From Myxococcota bacterium (GTDB taxonomy: Bacteria; Myxococcota_A; UBA9160; UBA6930), in NCBI GenBank assembly GCA_965223705.1, contig OZ245015.1, positions 3,584,001 to 3,648,000 on the forward strand: a DNA stretch of 64,000 bases, given 5' to 3'. Shown here piece after piece: positions 51,226 to 62,558 of the stretch. Numbering within the stretch: the stretch's first letter is position 1; every line of letters begins with the position of its first letter. The notes beneath the pieces were generated by a model, which saw only the letters and a list, made by a program, of their open reading frames with translations, did not search any database and was not told where the DNA came from. A program made the position numbers and the translations under genes.

Positions 51226-51386
51226 GTGAGTCCCGTGTGAGTCCCGGCCTTTTCCGAGCTTGAAAAACCCTATGAAACCGGAAAGAGATTGGTGGAGGCG
51301 GCGGGAATCGAACCCGTCGCTCAGAGACAAAAACCTAGTCTTTACGGACACTTACAGAGTCCGAGGCGTGAGTCCCGTGTGAGTCC
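51226..51386. mobile_element. attP-like site: tmRNA-like core (51290-51316) flanked by two 19-bp arm-type direct repeats
   Basis: GTGAGTCCCGTGTGAGTCC at 51226-51244 and 51368-51386 around TGGTGGAGGCGGCGGGAATCGAACCCG. Confidence 0.75.
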
Positions 51387-51540: not shown

Positions 51541-51569
51541 TTGACAGACTCTCCGGGCCGATCGATCTT
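51541..51569 (+). promoter_or_regulatory. Candidate promoter for the repeat RNA and RT
   Basis: TTGACA-17 bp-GATCTT would place the start site at about 51576, at the edge of repeat 1. Confidence 0.55.
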
Positions 51570-51577
51570 CGGAGGGT

Positions 51578-51708
51578 ATCCTGGCTTTCGCGCTGTGCGG
51601 GTGCGGTCTCGGATCGCTCGCCGACACGGGTTGCGGAGGACACGGGGCGAAGAAGTCGCCCCACGGCTGGACCGGGCCCCACAAACAAAGGGGTACTCCC
51701 AGGGGATG
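51578..51708 (+). repeat. 131-bp direct repeat, copy 1
   Basis: 129/131 identical to 51928-52058. Confidence 0.95.
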
Positions 51709-51927
51709 CCATCCGGGCCTCGCTGTAGAAGCGACTGCAACCTGGGATCTGAAAGCCGACAACGGCTTCACCCCCCGCCGGGCGGTCGCGAGATTTCGTT
51801 TCCGGGTCCGGGTGGGGTGGCAAAGTGTCGGGCTGCAAGCGGTCTTGGAGGCCCCAGTGTCGCGACGAGCCACATGCAAAAACGTGCCAAGCCGACGTCC
51901 CAACTGGGCCGCCTGGCTTTGGCAACC

Positions 51928-52058
51928 ATCCTGGCTTTCGCGCTGTGCGGGTGCGGTCTAGCATCGCTCGCCGACACGGGTTGCGGAGGACACGGGGCGA
52001 AGAAGTCGCCCCACGGCTGGACCGGGCCCCACAAACAAAGGGGTACTCCCAGGGGATG
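51928..52058 (+). repeat. 131-bp direct repeat, copy 2
   Basis: 129/131 identical to copy 1; ends 26 bp before the RT start. Confidence 0.95.
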
Positions 52059-52084
52059 AGTCGAACCTGCGAGCGCGGACCCGG

Positions 52085-54604
52085 GTGAGCCGGCGGGGTC
52101 CCAATAGGCAGAACGCGGGCGCAACCGAGCGCCCACCGATCTACAACAGAGTAAGATCGAGAAACTCACTCCTGCGTGCCTGGCGGCACGTGCGAGAGAA
52201 CGGCCTGAGATCGAAGTCTCGATCCAACCGCCTGGCCGTCGAACGATTCGATCAAGACGCGCACAGGCATGTCGACAGAATCTACCGCCAGCTTCTGGAA
52301 CGTCGCTTTCGATTTGCACCAGCCAAGGCCATTCGGAAAAAACGGAAAGGCAAGGCTCCTCGGCCTATCGTCGTAGCCCCCCTTGAGAGCAGAATCGTTC
52401 AAAGAAGCATTCTCAACGCACTGGTTGAAGAACCAGCGATGCGGGACCACTTCTCCGTACCGTCGAGTTACGGGACAAAGGGGGCACCAGCGGCAATCGA
52501 GGAGGCTTACCGGCTCATCATTTCAGGCGAGTTCAGCTTCTTCATTCGGTCAGACATAGTCGGCTTCTTTACTCGGATACCTCGTGCACGTCCGTTGGGT
52601 ACGATTGCCGAGTCGATCTCTGACCAGGCGTTCCTATCGTTGCTCCGTGAGGCAACCAACTCGGAGTTGGAAAACCTCGAGGCTATTGGAGAAGACGCCG
52701 ACCTGTTCCCGGACGAGGAATACGGCGTTGCCCAGGGTTGCGCTCTATCATCGCTTCTTGGCGACATCCTGCTTGCCAAATTCGATCACGAGATGAACGC
52801 GCGCGGGGTCCGCTGTCTCCGCTACGTCGACGACTTCCTCATCCTTGGTCCAAACGAGAAGTACACGAAGAAAGCATTTGCGAACGCTCAAGTACTTCTG
52901 AATGAGTTTGGGCTGCGCGCATATGATCCTTTCACTGATTCCGAGAAGGCAGATTTCGGTCGAGCTCAACATGGCTTCGAGTTTCTGGGCTGCGAGATCC
53001 GTCCAGGAATCGTTAGGCCGACAAAGAAGAAGAAGCAGCGGCTCCTCGAAGACCTCGAAGAGCTGTTCGACGACAGTTACGCCGCTATGGCGAACCCGCC
53101 CGCGCTTCCTCGATTCGGAGGGGCTCTGGTCCCTACGTTGGCAATCGTCAATCGAAAGCTCCAGGCGTGGGGGAACCAGTATCAGTTTTGCGCGGATCGC
53201 GGAGGCTTTGAAGTCCTCGACGAAAAAGTCGACGCAATGCTATCGAAGTACCTTGGGAGGTATTCCGAACGTCGTAAATTGTAGTAGTCGCGATCTAATC
53301 TGACAGTCGCCCTGGTTGTGGACCGTCTGTTAGATCCGATCTAAGCGGCGGCTTCGCCGATCTCCTTCTGCTCCCAGATCTTCATGCCGTCGTCGAACGT
53401 TTCCATTGGCGTCCGGCCGCAGCACATCTTGCCCTGGTGTGTGCGCTCTTCGTTATAGCGCACGAGCCAGTCGTCGAGATCCCGTTGGAGCTCTTCGAGG
53501 TCGCTGTAGAGCTTCTTCCGAAACGTCACCTGATAGAACTCCTGAAGGATCGTCTTGTGGAAGCGCTCACAGATCCCGTTCGTCTGCGGGCTCTTCACCT
53601 TCGTCTTCGTGTGATCCACGTCGTTGATCGCGAGGAAGAGCTGATAGGGGTGCTCGTCGAGACGGCCACAGTACTCCGTACCCCGGTCCGTTAAGAGACG
53701 AAGCAGTCTCCCACCGCGTTCCTCGAAGAAGGGCAGCACGCGATCGTTCAGGAGGTCCGCCGCCGTGATGGCCGTCTTCGCCGTGTAGAGCTTCGCAAAG
53801 GCCACCTTCGAGTAGGTGTCGACGAAGGTCTGCTGGTAGATCCGCCCCACGCCCTTGATCGTTCCCACGTAGAACGTGTCCTGGGAGCCCAGGTAGCCGG
53901 GATGTTCCGTCTCGATCTCGCCCGCCGACTCGTCGTCGTGGCGTTTGCGCTCGAGCGCCTGAACCTGGCTGTCGGTCAGCACGAGCCCCTCCTCGGCGAC
54001 CTTCTTCTCGAGCGCCGCCAAGCGGTGCTTGAAGGTCTGCAGGTCGTGGCGAAGCCACACACCCCGGCCGGAGAGATCGGCATCCCGCGCTTGCGCAGCT
54101 CGTTCGCCACGCGGACCTGGCCGAAGGCGGGCTCCTCGACCGCCAGGGCCACGATGGCCTGCTCGATCTCGGGAGCCGTACGGTTGCGGAGGTTCGGCTT
54201 GCGCCGCGACTTCTCGATCAGCGCCTCCACGCCGCCTTCTTCCACCGCCTGCTTGTAGCGGTAGAACGTGTCGCGCGAGTAGCCCATCACCTTGCAAGCG
54301 CGCGACACGTTGCCGAGCTCCTCTGCCAGGTTCAGGAGGCCGACCTTGTTCTTGATAATCTTCTGTTGTGTACTCATCGGGGGGTGCCCTTTCAGGAGAC
54401 CGTGGTCTCCGGTTGTGTTGGTCCACAACCAGGGTAACCCCACCTTCTTCGCTCGAAGATGTGTCAGATCAAGTCGGAACTACTGCACGTAAATCCCAAG
54501 GGGGCGACAGTGCCGCCGCCGACCGCCGTCGACTCCTGGGCGTACAGCTCTTGTCAGACTGCAACAGCGACCCGATACCCAAGCGACTTGCACGCGGCGC
54601 CTAA
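52085..54604 (+). CDS. Group II intron-like (G2L4-type) reverse transcriptase, interrupted near the C-terminus by an IS
   Basis: LLRAWRHV (RT0), RPIVV..RIVQR, SDIVGFF, GVAQGCALS, RYVDDF, FEFLG. Removing the IS and one TSD copy restores ...YSERRK-SQGGDSAAADRRRLLGV...GA* (about 434 aa). Confidence 0.88.
53280..54487 (-). mobile_element. IS481-family insertion sequence, 1208 bp
   Basis: 26-bp imperfect IRs (20/26; 53280-53305 and 54462-54487), 7-bp TSD CGTAAAT (53273-53279, 54488-54494), and a perfect 14-bp subterminal IR (53310-53323, 54421-54434). Confidence 0.93.
53341..54377 (-). pseudogene. IS481-family transposase, frameshifted
   Basis: MSTQQKIIKNKVGLLNLAEELGNVSRAC in one frame; QDTFY..TDRG..NGICERF (DDE) in another; shift near 54055-54065. 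Confidence 0.88.
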
Positions 54605-54897
54605 CTCAATTGAGGTGGGTTCGGCCTTCTTGACGTCCTCGTCTTTGGCCAGTGCGTACTTTTCTTCCTTCTTCTCGGGTTTCTTGTCCGGCGGATTCGG
54701 GGGAGGGAGTCGTGGACTCCAACCCCGTTCTTCCTTCTTTCGCCCGTTCGGGTGGAAGTCTTCCTTGCCCGAAAGGGGCTGCGGGTTCCACGGGATACAA
54801 GCGTCGAACTTACGCACGTGCGTGCGCCTGCGCTTTCAGGTTGCGCGGGCCCGGGCTCTCCTCTTGTTCAGCGAACCCGAGAAACTGCAGTAAGAAC

Positions 54898-54980
54898 TGA
54901 ACTGTCCGACGTGGCGGCGGGGTCTTCGACTTGGGAACGTCTGACTTGCGCACTGGGAGCACCTGCACTTTCTGGTGCGC
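54898..54980 (+). repeat. Dispersed structured repeat, diverged unit
   Basis: TGAACTGTCCGACGTGGCGGCGGG...CTTTCTGGTGCGC. Confidence 0.8.
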
Positions 54981-55029
54981 GGCGCAGGCGGAGGAGGATC
55001 GCTCATCAACCGTTCGTATCTTGAACGAG

Positions 55030-56381
55030 TGATCGGCACGACTAACATCTCCCCCAACTGTTTCCACGCCGAGGTACCCATCGTGTCCGCCAACACCACC
55101 CAAGTTCGATGGGACGAAACAGGGCAGCCCGTCTGCGACTGGCAGTACGAGTTGTCGCACGGCCTTGCGGAGCTTGATTGGCGCGCGTTGGGTGACCGGT
55201 TCGTCTCAGAAATACTTCGGAGTGTCGCTGCAAGCACCGGAGCTACCGGTAACAGCAAGAGCGAGCGACGCTTTGACCCTGACAGACGGGGACGTAGGGA
55301 TCGCCAGATCGCCCTGACACTTTCAGAGTGTTCGCTGACTTCAAGTCTCTACCTGGTAGTTCTGAAGGACAAGCATTTCGCTGCGATGGTGATCGGCGCT
55401 GGAACCGAACAAAATGATCAGATCACACCCTGGGCCAAGGCTCTTGCGGAGGCCCTAGACGATCTGACCAAAGACGAAGCCGAACACGACTGGTGGGCGA
55501 TTCTCGACCGTCAGCAGTACAGAACTCCACGATTCATCTCGCGACCCATGTCAGTTGGCAGCCTCACCCTTCGCTCTTGCCCCTACCTGGTAGAAGAACC
55601 GGTCCCCGGAAGCCGAGAAATGATCCTGGCCACAATCAGACGCTGGAACCCGGTGCGGGTAGAGGGGAGTTCCAGGGGATTTACAACTGCTGTGGGAATG
55701 ACATCGGCAACCAGGGACCTATGCCGGCTGTGCGCACTTTTAACCGTGGCTGACGTGGACGACACTGCTTGGACGCTCCGGCAAAGTCCACGCCCGGCAG
55801 GCTGGGAACCACGAGAGTTGGACCGCTCTTCGCTTCGGATCGCCCAAGAGGAATCAGCTTCGCGGGACGAGCTCGCTTTTCCTGACTGGATGTCAGAAGC
55901 GTGGGTAGATCTTTCCAAGGACGCCGGACTCGACAGGCTGGTGGATGGCTACTACGAGGGTTGTCTCCTCGAGCGAACACACCCCTCCTACTCACTTGTC
56001 GCATTCACTTCTGTCTCAGAGAAGATCGGTGAGCGCTTGTTTGAAACACCCCGGGTAGAGAACTGTGCCAATTGCGAGAAACCGCTGGCGAACTCCCGCG
56101 TCCAGTTGCTGGAGAAGGCGTTCGCTCGTGTTATGAGTCGAAAGGAAGCACGTAGACTCAAAGAAGACGTCTACCGGCCTCGCTCGATCACAGCTCATTC
56201 GGGGCGAACACTTGGGCTGGAGTCCTATTTTGGCTCAATCAACACCCTCCAAACCGCATCGCCCGTATACGATCTCCATTCCTTTGGCTTCACAGTCTTC
56301 CGTGCGAAGGAGGCAGCAAGGAAGCTGCTTACTGGCCTATTGGACCGTACTCTCGAACCACTAGCCGAAAGCCCCACTTAG
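55030..56381 (+). CDS. Hypothetical protein with C-terminal HEPN-like domain
   Basis: YSLVAFTSVSE..CANC..VYRPRSITAHSG (Rx4H); start uncertain. Confidence 0.6.
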
Positions 56382-57287: not shown

Positions 57288-57500
57288 ATGCCGCGGGGTG
57301 GGAGACGTGTGGGAGCCGGAAGGCCGCCGAAGGGGGACGAACCCCTCGAGCCCGTAGATGTATGGGTCAGCCCCAAGACGAAGGCCGCCTACGATGCGGA
57401 GGCCTCACGACGGGGTGTGAGCCGGAGCCAGGTCATGCGCGAGGCACTCGAGAAGCTAGAACCCAAGCGAAGGGCAACCCGCAAGAAGCCCGCGCGCTAG
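57288..57500 (+). CDS. Ribbon-helix-helix (CopG-like) DNA-binding protein
   Basis: RGGRRVGAGRP, then GVSRSQVMREAL. Confidence 0.75.
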   Translation: MPRGGRRVGAGRPPKGDEPLEPVDVWVSPKTKAAYDAEASRRGVSRSQVMREALEKLEPKRRATRKKPAR

Positions 57501-57515
57501 GCGCGACCCTGCAGA

Positions 57516-58769
57516 TTATTGTTTCTTGTCCTTGGGAACCTGAAGTCGGTGAAGTGCTGCACGAACCGCTCCGTCTTGAAGACGAGCGTACTTCTCGATC
57601 GATCGAGGATCGCGGTGTCCCGCGAGGTGAGCCAATAGCCGGTCATCCGCACCGCGAGCCTTTAGGTGGGTGGCATAGGAGTGCTTCGTGCCTTCGTAGA
57701 GGCTCACGTTGGGTACGCCGGCGCGTTTCGCGGCCGCTTTCCACGTCCGCCGAAGTGCCGTCTCGCTCCACCACCCTTGCTTGCGCCCGTCAGGGTTGAC
57801 GAACAGCGGCCCATCGGGGTCCTCGAGCGTTCGCTCGAGCGGAAGATACTCACCGAACCAGAGATCGAGCGTCAGATCGACCGGGACGACCTTCGCGTTC
57901 CTTGATTTGAGGCCCCGCACAACGCCACCGGTCTTCCGATCTTTCGCCGCTCGCGACACACGGATCGAATCCCCCGCAAGATCCCGCACCCGAAGCACAC
58001 GGGCCTCACTCGGCCGGACCAACCCGTAGGCCATGCACAGGAAGATCCCTCGCTTCGCATCCGGGATTTCGTTCAGGATCTTCTCTTGGATCTCGCTCGA
58101 GACGATGGTCGGCTGGTGCTCGTCCGGTTCGGGCCACGGGAAAGTCGGCACCTTGTAGTCGACGCGCACGTCGCGCGCGATCCAATGAAGGAAGGAGGAG
58201 AACCCCGCCATCACGTTCTTCACTGTCTTCTGTGAAATCCCGTGCTCGGCGAGCCAGAAGCTCCACTCTTCGAGAGAGGCCGTCGTGATCTCGAAGATCG
58301 AGACGTCGCGCCAGTAGGTGAAGTAGGCGCCCTGCTCTCCTTCGAGGCCGGCCCAGCGGCGATACTCGCGGAGGGTGCGCGGTTGGCGCTTCCCGACCTC
58401 GACGCGCTTCTCGAACACCTCAATCCACCGGTGGACCAACGGCTCGATCGCCGACGCCCCTCCCGCTTCGGGTGCTAGTTCAGAGAGCACGTCGTCGAGG
58501 AGTCGTCCCTGCGCGACCGACACTTCGACGTGAGCCAGGAGGGCCTCCGCCATGTCCCGGCTCTCAAACTTGATGCCGCGGAATGAATGGAGAAAGCGAG
58601 GCCCCCACTTCCGCCCGAAGTCGATCCGCCAGGAGCCCTTACGGCTTCCCGGCCTTTCGCGGACTCGGCCCAGCTTTGCCCGCTTTGCGGCCATGTCGGC
58701 CCACGTCTTACCGTGCAGTTGGGAGGCCAGCCAAGCGGAATCTGCAGGATCGGGGCGCCTTTTCCCCAT
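57516..58769 (-). CDS. Tyrosine recombinase/integrase
   Basis: VRPSEARVL, LKS, LYEGTKHSYAT, AGH, IEKYA; start uncertain. Confidence 0.88.
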   Translation of the reverse strand: MGKRRPDPADSAWLASQLHGKTWADMAAKRAKLGRVRERPGSRKGSWRIDFGRKWGPRFLHSFRGIKFESRDMAEALLAHVEVSVAQGRLLDDVLSELAPEAGGASAIEPLVHRWIEVFEKRVEVGKRQPRTLREYRRWAGLEGEQGAYFTYWRDVSIFEITTASLEEWSFWLAEHGISQKTVKNVMAGFSSFLHWIARDVRVDYKVPTFPWPEPDEHQPTIVSSEIQEKILNEIPDAKRGIFLCMAYGLVRPSEARVLRVRDLAGDSIRVSRAAKDRKTGGVVRGLKSRNAKVVPVDLTLDLWFGEYLPLERTLEDPDGPLFVNPDGRKQGWWSETALRRTWKAAAKRAGVPNVSLYEGTKHSYATHLKARGADDRLLAHLAGHRDPRSIEKYARLQDGAVRAALHRLQVPKDKKQ

Positions 58770-59203
58770 TCTTCCCACATCGGACGGACGCGGGTTCGGG
58801 TGAACGCGCAAATTCAACGCAACTCGGGGGCAAGAATGTTGCGTCGCGAGAAAGTCCAAAGAAAGGACTTGCTGTGCCCCCGAATGCGAGCGAACAGTGT
58901 GTCGCCTTCCGCATAGCCTCGGGCCGCTCGGCTATGTCTTGCGACCACTCGACACCGAGCGGCCCACTTCGTTGCCTTCGCTGACACCAATCGATGCGGA
59001 CGGGCACTTACTCGGTTGAGCGCTGTGTGCGCGATAGTCCTGCTAGGGCCCATAGGTGGTAACGCAGTCGCCACCGGGCTGTTCGAACCAATCTACGAAG
59101 ATCGTTGGGACAAAACTGCGGTAACCGGGACCAAACGGGTTCACGGAGCCGCGGGGTGTTCCCGTTCGCTCCATGAATCCGAAACGCAAAAAAGGATTCA
59201 ACC

Positions 59204-61207
59204 ATGAGCTATGCGAATTTCGAATCGGGCCCCAAGAGAGCTGCCGTCGTAGGCCCGAGCGGCGTCGAGGATCCTCTCCCGCCTTTCAGTACAGCGTTGC
59301 AGCGCCATCTAGACTGCGGTCACGACCTGATCACTCTTTACCCATGGAACTCGGCTGATGCACACGGACGGGCATTGGGAAAGGTTCCGCGCGGGCGATG
59401 GCGGCAAGTCGACTACACCGATCGCGACATTTTGAAGAACGTCGCCGAGGGTGGAAACACTGGAGTCCGAATCAAAGACGGCTGGGTCGTATTAGACTAT
59501 GACCCTCGAAATGACCCCGACGGGCTTACACCGGACATGCTCGAGCTCGAATATGGATCGTTCCTCGAATCGCTTCCGGGCGTTCGAACCGGCGGCGGGG
59601 GCTGGCATCGATACGCTCGGGTCCCTGAGGGCAGTCGCCTCAGGAGAGAGCATCCCGACTTTCCGGGCCTTGAGATCAAACAAGAAGGCGGCCAAGTCGT
59701 AGCCGCCGGGTCACGTCATCCAAACGGGAGGATGTACCAATGGATCGAAGCATCACCCCGTCTCGCTGGCGATCTTAATACCAGGATGCTTCTTGCGTGG
59801 CGCCGTCCCAAGAGGAACCAAATAGGGCATGAGGGTCCAATCAGCACGACTCGGGCGAAGGCGTGTCTCGATCAGCTCGACGTCCTTGAGTATCGACTTC
59901 ACGACGAATGGTTCGAGCTGATGACTGCATTTCATTCTGCGACCGGTGGATGCCTAGAGGGGCGCGGGATCTTCGAATCGTGGAGCACTGCCGATCCTTT
60001 GTATTCGAGCCATACCGAGCTGATTCGAGAACGTTGGGATTCGCTCGAAGCGAACAAGGCTGGCGGAATAACAGTCGGCACCCTCTTCCATCATGTCCGC
60101 GAGAGAGGCGGCTCAATCCCCGCCCCGGATCCCGAGGAGGTGTTTGATCGAGTTCCGATTGAGAGTCATCAGCCAGAACATGGCAGCGGCGGAATCGTGT
60201 GGGCGAAGGGTATCGCGGAACAACGGATTTCTTGGCTGTGGCGTCCTTGGCTGGCTCGCGGAAAAGCAGCGATCCTCGAAGGCAACCCAGGCCTCGGGAA
60301 GACGACCATAGCCTTGGACTTGTTCGCGCGGCTGTCTACCGGACGAGCCTTTCCCGGGGAGGAAGAGGCTTCCCACCGACCAACCAAAGTTCTCATCGTA
60401 GCCCCGGAAGATACGGTTGAAGATGTCCTCAGGCCCCGCCTTCGCCTCGCCGATGCTGACCTCGGAAGCGTCGGGTTCTACGAATACACGAAGCCGAATG
60501 GGATCGAGGTCCCGGTCACCCTCAGCGTGCTAGGCAGAGTGCTAAACGATGCTCGGAAAGCCGGCGTTGGGTTCGTGTACTTCGACTCGATTATGTCCTT
60601 CATCGGTGGCAACGCTAACACGCACAACGACGCCGGTGTCCGAGAAGTGCTGCATGAGATTGATTGCGGGGTTCGTAGTATTGGTGCCCAGTTCTTGGCG
60701 ACGCGGCACCTCCACAAAGGAGAGAAGTCAATCGCGGCCTTCGCGGGCGGCGGTTCCATCGCGTTCACTGCCTTTGCGCGGTCGGTTCTCCTCTGTGCGA
60801 AGGATCCGAAGCATTGGGACGATCGCAACCGAGGAGTTCTCGCACATACGAAAGGTAATTTGGGTCCGAGCGCTACAAGCCTTCGCTACAGGATCATCGA
60901 GCCCGAACCAAACGTGACCAAGATCGAGTGGCTCGCGACTTGCGACTTGACCGCCGACGAGTTGGTGGCGTACACGCCGGACTCCGAAAAGCGCGGAGAG
61001 GCAAGACGCGCCTGCGGTCAATGGCTGGGGAGGTACTTCTCGGATGGCAAGCGCGAGGTTGCGAGTAACGTGAAGGCTGCAGCGAGGGCTGCCGGACACG
61101 AATGGACAAACTCGACATGGGATCGCGCGCGTAAGGATCGTTTTATTGGCTCGGCGGGGCGGGGACAGACCGCGGTGTGGTTCCTCGAAGAACCCCGCCT
61201 GGGTTAG
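59204..61207 (+). CDS. Prim-Pol primase, PriCT-2 and AAA_25/RepA helicase fusion
   Basis: LDYDPRN, TGGGGWHRY; DEWFEL..ESWS..ERWDS..ITVGTL; Walker A GNPGLGKT. Confidence 0.85.
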   Translation: MSYANFESGPKRAAVVGPSGVEDPLPPFSTALQRHLDCGHDLITLYPWNSADAHGRALGKVPRGRWRQVDYTDRDILKNVAEGGNTGVRIKDGWVVLDYDPRNDPDGLTPDMLELEYGSFLESLPGVRTGGGGWHRYARVPEGSRLRREHPDFPGLEIKQEGGQVVAAGSRHPNGRMYQWIEASPRLAGDLNTRMLLAWRRPKRNQIGHEGPISTTRAKACLDQLDVLEYRLHDEWFELMTAFHSATGGCLEGRGIFESWSTADPLYSSHTELIRERWDSLEANKAGGITVGTLFHHVRERGGSIPAPDPEEVFDRVPIESHQPEHGSGGIVWAKGIAEQRISWLWRPWLARGKAAILEGNPGLGKTTIALDLFARLSTGRAFPGEEEASHRPTKVLIVAPEDTVEDVLRPRLRLADADLGSVGFYEYTKPNGIEVPVTLSVLGRVLNDARKAGVGFVYFDSIMSFIGGNANTHNDAGVREVLHEIDCGVRSIGAQFLATRHLHKGEKSIAAFAGGGSIAFTAFARSVLLCAKDPKHWDDRNRGVLAHTKGNLGPSATSLRYRIIEPEPNVTKIEWLATCDLTADELVAYTPDSEKRGEARRACGQWLGRYFSDGKREVASNVKAAARAAGHEWTNSTWDRARKDRFIGSAGRGQTAVWFLEEPRLG

Positions 61208-61629: not shown

Positions 61630-62558
61630 GTCCCTATATACGGAGGACCATCTCGGCCCGCCCGCCTCCCCTCCGAAAAGCAGAGAAAACCTGCTCTTTT
61701 GTGTGAACTGTCCGACGTGGCGGCGGGTTCCTCGGCACACGAGCGTCTCACCTGCGTACCGGAAGCGCGGGTACTTTCCGTTCTGAAGAGCGCCTTCCGC
61801 CTGACGTCGCCCCTGTCCAGCGGGTGGCAGACAACGCGCAACAGTGCTGGAAATCTTGCTGACACATTTTTACGCCTACGACCACGCAAAACGGTCGAAA
61901 GCTCATAAGTCCTCTCGGGGGAAACGGCAACGATTATCTTGGCCCCCGCGGAGGACGCGTGGGGCCGGGCCGGTACCCGAGGTACGCAGCTCGAGAGCTC
62001 TTCTTTGATCTTGGGCCCATCCCCATAACATAGGGGCGCGCGCTAGCGGCCGGCGCCAGCAGGGATCTGCTGCGCGCCCGAGAACCTGTTCTTGTCCTGA
62101 ATGCTCCGACGTGGCAGCAGGTTCCTCGCCTCACAAGCGTCAGACCTGCGCACCGGAAGCGCCCGATATTTTCCGGTGCGCCCGAGGGATGAGGAGCGAA
62201 AGGGAGCGCGCCCTTCGCCTAGCGTTTTTGATGTCGGGCGTTCTGAGAGCGGGGGCTCCTGTTCCCTACATTATAGGGAGCGGCTGGTTCAGCCCACCCG
62301 CCTCCCCTCAGAAGAAGCGGTGAAAACCTGCTCTTTCTGTGAACTGTCCGACGTGGCGGCGGGTTCCTCGCCACACGAGCGTGGCTTACGCGCCGGAGAC
62401 ACCGGTACTTTCCGGTGCGCCCCAGACCGAGGGTCAGACGGCGAAGCAGAGATTCGCTGCTTTTCCGAAACCGGCCCGGCGGTGTCGCGGAAACAAGCAG
62501 CAGAACCCTGCTCCCCGCCTGAATGCTCCGACGTGTCGGCGGCTTACCCGGCGAAGGT
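61630..62558 (+). repeat. Cluster of four units of the dispersed structured repeat
   Basis: Cores at about 61686-61780, 62082-62181, 62323-62420 and a partial one at 62504-62558, sharing AACCTGCT..TGAA..TCCGACGTG.CGGCGG. Confidence 0.85.

Follow-up and report, generated by a model that had tools for sequence, protein, structure and literature searches.

A candidate permuted gene in the long direct repeats of a G2L4 reverse transcriptase locus

About 70% of the genes for G2L4 reverse transcriptases (RTs) are preceded by two ~140-bp repeats, the long direct repeats (LDRs), with a ~240-bp spacer (Park et al., bioRxiv 10.1101/2022.03.14.484287). The accessible text of that preprint demonstrates a DNA-repair role for G2L4 in vivo and in vitro, reports that the survival effect of the RT is modulated by the LDRs, with higher survival when it is expressed without them, and finds bottom-strand RNA coverage in P. 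aeruginosa to be 20-fold higher across the LDRs; we read the bottom strand as the sense strand of the RT because the legend names the top strand antisense. The same text gives the LDRs no coding role or mechanism, and term look-ups for ‘LDR’ and ‘direct repeat’ in the available text of a 2025 G2L4 structure preprint and a 2026 AFM paper found neither. A coding or permuted role for these repeats was likewise not found in the open literature searched; a small ORF may be noted in the journal version or supplements of Park et al. (Figure S2, Supplemental File).

Other described systems offer partial parallels. In DRT2/Neo, tandem copying of a structured RNA beside the RT yields a gene that the chromosome itself does not contain (Tang et al., PMC11100668; Wilkinson et al., PMC12039810). 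The model proposed below would share with it the pairing of an RT with a structured RNA, the building of a gene by tandem copying, and some endless frames. It differs from DRT2 in that the RT belongs to another clade (26 bits against the Drt2 model NF041746, cut-off 390), the unit is ~350 nt with 130-nt terminal repeats, and the ORF, a sense-strand frame preceded by an SD and start codon of its own, ends at a stop in most loci, encodes a transmembrane segment and includes a −1 shift site. Retrozymes and LTR retroelements (PMC5680766, PMC9695139) are similar in their repeat-spacer-repeat layout, transcript from the repeat edge and near-identical repeats; unlike these, the present unit has no Rfam ribozyme, has its RT outside the repeats, shows no dispersed copies in this genome and is very probably protein-coding. 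With group II intron RTs/maturases it shares RT fold and ancestry, but the score against the maturase model TIGR04416 is low (117 bits, cut-off 300), and both an intron RNA and a C-terminal DNA-binding or endonuclease domain are lacking.

Here, we consider a G2L4 locus in a window of 64,000 nt from a Myxococcota bacterium, together with its relatives. The RT family and its repeats are already known; what is new is a permuted gene architecture, unreported in the literature searched. The function of the G2L4 LDRs has been open since 2022, and a permuted gene offers them a concrete job with exact junctions.

The RT and its direct repeats

The RT gene (52085..53284, + strand) lies 26 nt past the second repeat and encodes 399 aa as it stands, with an uncertain start codon; its reading frame ends at a stop codon inside the end of an IS481 element. 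Its best solved relative is the G2L4 structure PDB 9d5x (E 1e-56; a further G2L4 structure is 9d4s), with GsI-IIC reaching only 1.6e-14. The homology to the P. aeruginosa G2L4 spans residues 19–383, and RVT_1 is its only Pfam match. These results bear out the G2L4 kinship raised by the first-pass annotation, and the sub-threshold maturase score with no intron RNA match agrees with its placement of the RT outside true group II intron proteins. A group II intron was rejected on the same grounds, the search for flanking intron RNA having covered domains V–VI. The annotation had further taken the YVDD active site as a mark separating this RT from G2L4, which does not hold: among 38 aligned homologs, 15 have YVDD, 23 have YIDD and none has YADD, and the YVDD rows are nested among the YIDD rows in the RT tree. 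We accordingly read YVDD as a family variant of the G2L4 YIDD.

The two repeats, LDR1 (51578..51708) and LDR2 (51928..52058), both on the + strand and 131 nt long, were correctly delimited at the outset, as was the stand-alone YVDD RT behind them. They are 98% identical, with two mismatches (C/A and G/C), a period of 350 and a spacer of 219 nt. Since the RT is a G2L4 and the repeats are the published LDRs, the locus belongs to the known family. It resembles the P. aeruginosa AZPAE12409 G2L4 in its repeat pair and in being placed on a horizontally acquired island near an integrase, and differs from it in having YVDD instead of YIDD, an IS481 in the RT tail and no P2 element (see below). A diversity-generating retroelement was also considered and rejected, given the nature of the two mismatches and the lack of a conserved neighbour.

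Upstream of LDR1 is a predicted promoter, P1 (51541..51569, + strand), with hexamers TTGACA (51541–46) and GATCTT (51564–69) separated by 17 nt and is predicted to start transcription at the left edge of the repeat. The site is not listed by a stock promoter scan; comparison nevertheless favours the initial claim of an upstream promoter, as a P1-like arrangement before repeat 1 scores at least 15 in 50 of 78 relatives against 11 of 78 control stretches. In relatives, the −10 hexamer mostly ends 4–18 nt ahead of LDR1; hence, the repeat appears to begin at the predicted transcript start. A second promoter-like element in the spacer, P2, is found as a strict pattern in 64/80 loci and is missing at this locus, though seen in most relatives.

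For the comparisons, 166 loci were fetched, with an RT match in 165 plus this locus, and the RTs are mostly just 32–50% identical to the query. An LDR pair is present in 86 of the 122 loci having at least 700 nt upstream; it is absent in 36, at least 17 of them with a single LDR, which we count against the model developed below. Over 85 distinct units, the repeat has a median length of 127 nt and the period a median of 352, and identity between LDR1 and LDR2 within a locus has a median of 99.2%, the two being fully identical in 37. The period modulo 3 leaves remainders 1, 0 and 2 in 50, 22 and 13 units, respectively, a skew that suggests coding. We analysed 80 of these units, having dropped two without the spacer motif described below, two with a doubtful call of it and one with an assembly gap. 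The RT was not found in 60 relatives at E 1e-30; it was found in 1 of 400 genomes of the phylum, in no annotated phage or E. coli genome and in one plasmid record.

A probable permuted reading frame

The spacer presents a fixed order of P2, then an SD with a start codon, and then an AAAAAC motif in a strongly conserved context. At this locus, sequence and comparison place the SD (GGAGG, 51847–51), a GTG start (51857), a seven-codon leader and AAAAAC (51878–83) within 51847..51883 on the + strand. A start with an SD lies 3–9 codons upstream of AAAAAC in one frame in 78 of the 80 loci, the other two frames having such a start in 1 and 4; since the motif served to choose the site, its own invariance is a matter of construction. 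The leader frame ends soon, and the frame that encodes a hydrophobic segment is −1 relative to the start. Four loci have a stop in the −1 frame just ahead of AAAAAC, implying that a −1 shift is needed there, while in four distinct loci without AAAAAC (L156/157, L164, L116 and L289) the start already shares the frame of the hydrophobic segment. A hairpin begins 0–1 nt past the A run in 57/80 folds, its stability being modest. The shift could be either ribosomal or due to an extra A added by the RT; RT slippage at AAAAAC-like motifs is known (PMC5737552).

Past the shift site runs what we term the N-half of the permuted ORF (51880..52059, + strand, −1 frame), comprising a basic stretch, a hydrophobic helix and a linker, with a TGA straddling the end of LDR2. 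A hydrophobic window of at least 1.6 is present in the N-half of 69/80 loci, and its stop falls within 6 nt of the LDR2 end in 32/80 and within −6 to +30 nt in 53/80. A lipobox-like pattern occurs in only 9/80 loci, and a lipoprotein as a family trait was rejected.

The reading frame with which the N-half traverses LDR2 is also the one kept open in and beyond LDR1, which is where we place the C-half (51709..51846, + strand), the 5′ part of the spacer that also carries the 5′ strands of the RNA helices discussed below. In the first 120 nt past LDR1, with the frame fixed from LDR2, there are two stops in 3,200 codons across the 80 loci; the other frames have 183 and 114, and near-stop codons are equal in number across all three. 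Within LDR1, the coding frame has 4 stops against 111 and 120. Stops are unbiased by frame elsewhere, at 106/98/86 after LDR2 and 88/86/62 before LDR1. The open frame past LDR1 extends for at least 35 codons in 79/80 loci, and among loci with RT identity below 55% it is open in 46/47, where 500 shuffles gave a mean of 11.8 and a maximum of 21. The LDR1 frame rarely begins on its own: an in-frame ATG with an SD is found in 3/80 loci, rarer than in the other frames, on which count we rejected separate translation of LDR1 plus spacer. A reverse-strand ORF was similarly set aside, there being no family-wide open minus frame in LDR1 or the 5′ part of the spacer.

We conclude, with considerable confidence from these sequence comparisons, that the locus stores a gene with its C-half first and its N-half second, the LDR serving as the overlap and LDR1 supplying the middle part of the ORF without a start of its own. 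As the halves are in reverse order, a full product requires an LDR2-to-LDR1 junction, and such genes are for the same reason invisible to annotation. The first-pass annotation had missed this protein-coding unit with its internal start and frameshift site. The nominal full product has 109 residues in the −1 frame (the median of the 52 loci stopping before the next start site); in a concatemer, the frame would meet a stop ahead of the following start site in 52/80 loci and run on in 28/80, being endless in subsets only. About 8/80 loci have an ORF broken by a stop or a frameshift, which we count against the reading. P. aeruginosa (L167) has the same design, with identical 132-nt LDRs and a TGA at the LDR2 end, and its N-half is annotated as a 64-aa hypothetical protein.

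Over 18 close pairs, changes at codon positions 1, 2 and 3 number 123/110/115 in the C-half, 87/79/94 in LDR2 and 1428/1015/3670 in the RT, and single changes are synonymous or non-synonymous in the ratios 47/48 in the N-half, 60/108 in LDR2 and 40/115 in the C-half. By these counts, amino-acid selection is clear in the N-half and weak in LDR2, while the C-half is nearly neutral; in the C-half, every codon position is also under constraint from RNA pairing. Pfam searches with 63 LDR1-plus-spacer translations returned no family and four single weak matches, and the Atlas gave no match to the product above 0.77. Two AlphaFold models of the product are of low confidence (pLDDT 54 and 55); the second, as a low-confidence fold, has a helix and two long strands, one derived from the LDR and the other from the spacer.

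Structure of the repeat RNA

The repeat region folds better than its shuffles (z −2.65). Covariation supports the initial view of the repeats as a structured RNA, one found family-wide: 22 of 24 predicted pairs of the internal LDR stems covary over 17 sequences, and the consensus has covarying stems that correspond to the two hairpins then named in each repeat. Other parts of that view have fared less well. A closing stem joining the ends of each repeat appears in the single-sequence fold here but is absent from the family consensus, and its pairing score is 16.9 with its own partner against 16.7 with the partners of other loci; the suggested processing of the repeats into two identical units found no support; and the spacer hairpin AAGCCG-acaa-CGGCTT does occur here, though within an insertion seen only at this locus and L007 among 29 aligned loci.

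A further set of pairings, which the first-pass annotation missed, joins the 3′ flank of LDR2 (52059..52098, + strand) to the spacer. The 45 nt past LDR2 pair with the 5′ part of the spacer through two helices, helix 1 (~51710–51740 with ~52059–52087) and helix 2 (51773–51781 with 52090–52098), tying the ends of the RNA together. Pairing with own as against other-locus partners scores 27.0 vs 19.5 and 25.8 vs 19.0, with controls flat. Compensatory changes occur in 16 of 19 pairs, 91.7% are paired, and the score is reached by 0/500 shuffles, figures that are not probabilities, the helix columns having been chosen on the same alignments in which they were counted and the shuffles ignoring kinship. 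In a second subfamily, 9/15 long-range pairs show compensatory changes and RNAalifold recovers helix 1 unaided.

Possible routes to a full product and the genomic setting

We lean towards a mechanism, similar in principle to DRT2, in which strand transfer by the RT between the repeats assembles the gene. P1 would start an RNA at the LDR1 edge, comprising LDR1, the spacer, LDR2 and the 3′ flank and folded by the two long-range helices. The RT would copy this RNA to its 5′ end in LDR1, whereupon the cDNA could anneal to the identical LDR2, where we propose that the jump lands, and synthesis resume. The product would be a tandem (LDR+spacer)n DNA with P2, the start, the N-half, the LDR and the C-half in order, from which a membrane-anchored protein of ~110 residues would be expressed, or an endless polyprotein at some loci, with the frameshift lowering effector output further. 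Speculatively, a snap-back primer could be provided by the 3′ flank through its pairing with the spacer; in the accessible text on G2L4, such priming has been demonstrated on DNA. We place strand transfer first because the transcript appears to start at the repeat edge, the unit is in fixed linkage with an RT whose lineage switches templates, the RNA fold reaches the RT start, the repeats are near identical and P2 could drive the rebuilt gene; the same copying, as proposed, would homogenise the LDRs and so account for their near identity within a locus. Counted against the model are the published DNA-repair role, the survival gain without LDRs, the weak amino-acid selection and the failure to find a known family or a confident model for the product. 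Moreover, at this locus the C-half enters the leader frame without a stop, and since P2 is absent in this run-on class, a DNA copy would there lack an evident promoter. No joined LDR2-to-LDR1 molecules were found among the assembled contigs of four DNA runs from one study, and the spacer depth in these runs, which says nothing on expression or cDNA, is about that of the flanks.

The run-on loci bear most directly on an RNA-level alternative, which we consider unlikely overall, wherein cleavage of the transcript at an identical position in each of the two identically folded LDRs would release a 350-nt monomer, to be ligated into a translated circle as in retrozymes, with the RT acting as a chaperone or copying the circle. 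P2 is absent in all 7 loci with a run-on C-half against 5 of 73 others (the seven representing three or four lineages rather than seven events), and L296, found later, also combines a run-on C-half with a lack of P2. These loci, among them the present one, might permit translation around a circle with a −1 shift at each turn, for which no internal promoter would be needed, and the covarying LDR structure also suits an RNA-level role. Against this, searches of three loci gave no Rfam ribozyme or other family match (a ribozyme of an undescribed type being conceivable), no ligase occurs among 150 neighbour ORFs, and P2 is kept in most loci, though it could serve RT expression. A quite improbable reading holds that no full product exists: the LDR RNA would serve as a scaffold in regulation and the N-half as a leader peptide, both tuning a DNA-repair RT, with the open frame past LDR1 as a by-product. 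The repair function reported by Park et al. and the weak amino-acid selection on the C-half speak for it, but it leaves unexplained a 60- to 90-fold depletion of stops that is confined to one frame, shares the register of the N-half and holds in divergent loci, an open frame past LDR1 without its own start, and unit lengths that vary mostly by threes.

Very unlikely, in our estimate, is recombination between the LDRs at the DNA level, whether through RecA, phage annealing proteins or end-joining by G2L4; this would loop out a 350-bp circle as a one-way switch and leave one LDR behind. Loci that have one LDR and exactly the layout expected of such a deletion are indeed scattered across the RT tree, one isolate assembly combines a single LDR with a separate 355-nt contig corresponding to a circular unit, and 7 of 140 profile matches are in full order, six on contigs of 504–1116 nt and one without a contig on record. 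However, short-read assemblers collapse such repeats likewise, and assembly collapse accounts for the single LDRs, the 355-nt contig and the full-order proteins alike; P0178, P0203, P0218, P0225, P0231, P0242 and P0248, as well as contig L289, were not taken as evidence of real circles, being indistinguishable from assembler loops. Further, single LDRs have not decayed (0 stops in 15/15), all 10 loci with MFD titles, which we take to be long-read assemblies, have pairs, and a loop-out leaves P1 at the repeat edge and the covarying RNA helices unexplained. In related searches, the spacer was found in 1 of 10 genomes without a clear pair (positive controls worked where included, not all searches having them), a motif search of five genomes gave matches at chance level, and none of the loci retrieved by scanning viral contigs for the motif matched the C-half.

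Returning to gene assembly, the broader proposition, that G2L4 is a gene-unscrambling enzyme yielding, by LTR-like strand transfer or RNA circularisation, a membrane effector with finite and endless variants for anti-phage or stress-triggered growth arrest, seems to us evenly balanced. The effector would most likely act in growth arrest under phage or DNA stress, a defence role that we infer from analogy and the mobile context. If true, RT-driven de novo gene assembly arose twice, here in a group II intron-like clade via strand transfer between long repeats, and one would have to reconsider what a ‘repair’ RT of solved structure acts on physiologically.

A survey of 150 of the 159 neighbour ORFs at 41 loci gives this role no constant partner: no partner gene is conserved, and neighbours are varied, with integrases, methyltransferases and toxin-antitoxin genes scattered and defence neighbours sporadic, which we count against the model. 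The link of the RT to a HEPN gene drawn in the first-pass annotation is not supported by the same survey, in which a single ORF has a HEPN-family match, and a conserved HEPN partner was rejected. The ORF so labelled (54975–56381) has no Pfam, PADLOC or NCBIfam match; its nearest named Atlas clusters, at a score of 0.90, carry MauJ (49% of members) and HEPN_Apea (11%), making the HEPN label only a lead.

In this genome, the module is probably impaired, because P2 is absent and the IS481-family element (53280..54487, − strand) removes the dimer-interface tail of the RT; according to the accessible text of the structure paper, the C-terminal extension of G2L4 places arginines at that interface. 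The insertion separates the last 36 residues, and the displaced 3′ end (54495..54604, + strand, 36 codons) still carries the RRLLGV tail conserved across homologs. The element has terminal inverted repeats and a 7-nt target duplication (53273–79 / 54488–94), is single-copy in the genome, and has a transposase frame split near 54060. On the other side, the mobile element carrying the module is bounded by a copy of the tmRNA 3′ end (51287..51320, − strand; a weak tmRNA match), an island attachment site that is one of 9 matches to this stretch in the genome, the tmRNA gene itself among them. The island so delimited, at whose edge the module lies, belongs to a tandem array of such islands.

Variants of the permuted ORF and relatives without the repeats

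At five of the related loci (L054, L062, L053, L075 and L123), the unit of long direct repeat (LDR) plus spacer has a period that is a multiple of three, and one frame runs stop-free around the entire proposed circle, yielding endless ORFs that need no frameshift. At L020 (4043-4942), the spacer of the repeat pair carries an insertion of ~420 nt, despite which both ORF halves remain readable. At many loci, the full ORF, with its N- and C-halves joined, often terminates, 17 nt upstream of AAAAAC, at a TGA that overlaps the start of the next unit, an arrangement that, on a tandem copy, resembles translational coupling.

A clade of RTs with the active-site motif YVDD (L012, L013, L018, L114 and L119; Polyangiaceae where named) adjoins the window's RT in the tree with modest support, and no trace of an LDR was found at these five loci.

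Islands and neighboring genes

Copies of the tmRNA 3' end mark the boundaries between islands arrayed in tandem, both in the window (32722, 39248, 40396, 46653 and 51287) and elsewhere in the genome (C1, 3687286 and 3695684), where the tmRNA gene itself lies at C1 3709970-3710336 (-). The RT's island also encodes a ribbon-helix-helix protein (57288-57500, +), a tyrosine integrase (57516-58859, -) and a PrimPol-PriCT-AAA protein (59204-61207, +), which together constitute a satellite-like replication module. A 468-aa ORF (54975-56381, +) belongs to a family without a name (Atlas 0.96 to hypothetical clusters); its MauJ/HEPN_Apea-like character is only a lead.

Diverged repeats and the IS481 frame

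Diverged repeats of 75 nt and 41 nt, each beginning TGAACTGTCCGACGTGGCGGCGGG, occur at 54777-54972 and 61704-61778, 6.8 kb apart; a further stretch resembling them lies near 62100, and the set is possibly a dispersed element. In the IS481 element interrupting the RT gene, one contig of the X3 sequencing run has 7 extra bases at 54059, where the transposase frame is split in the window.
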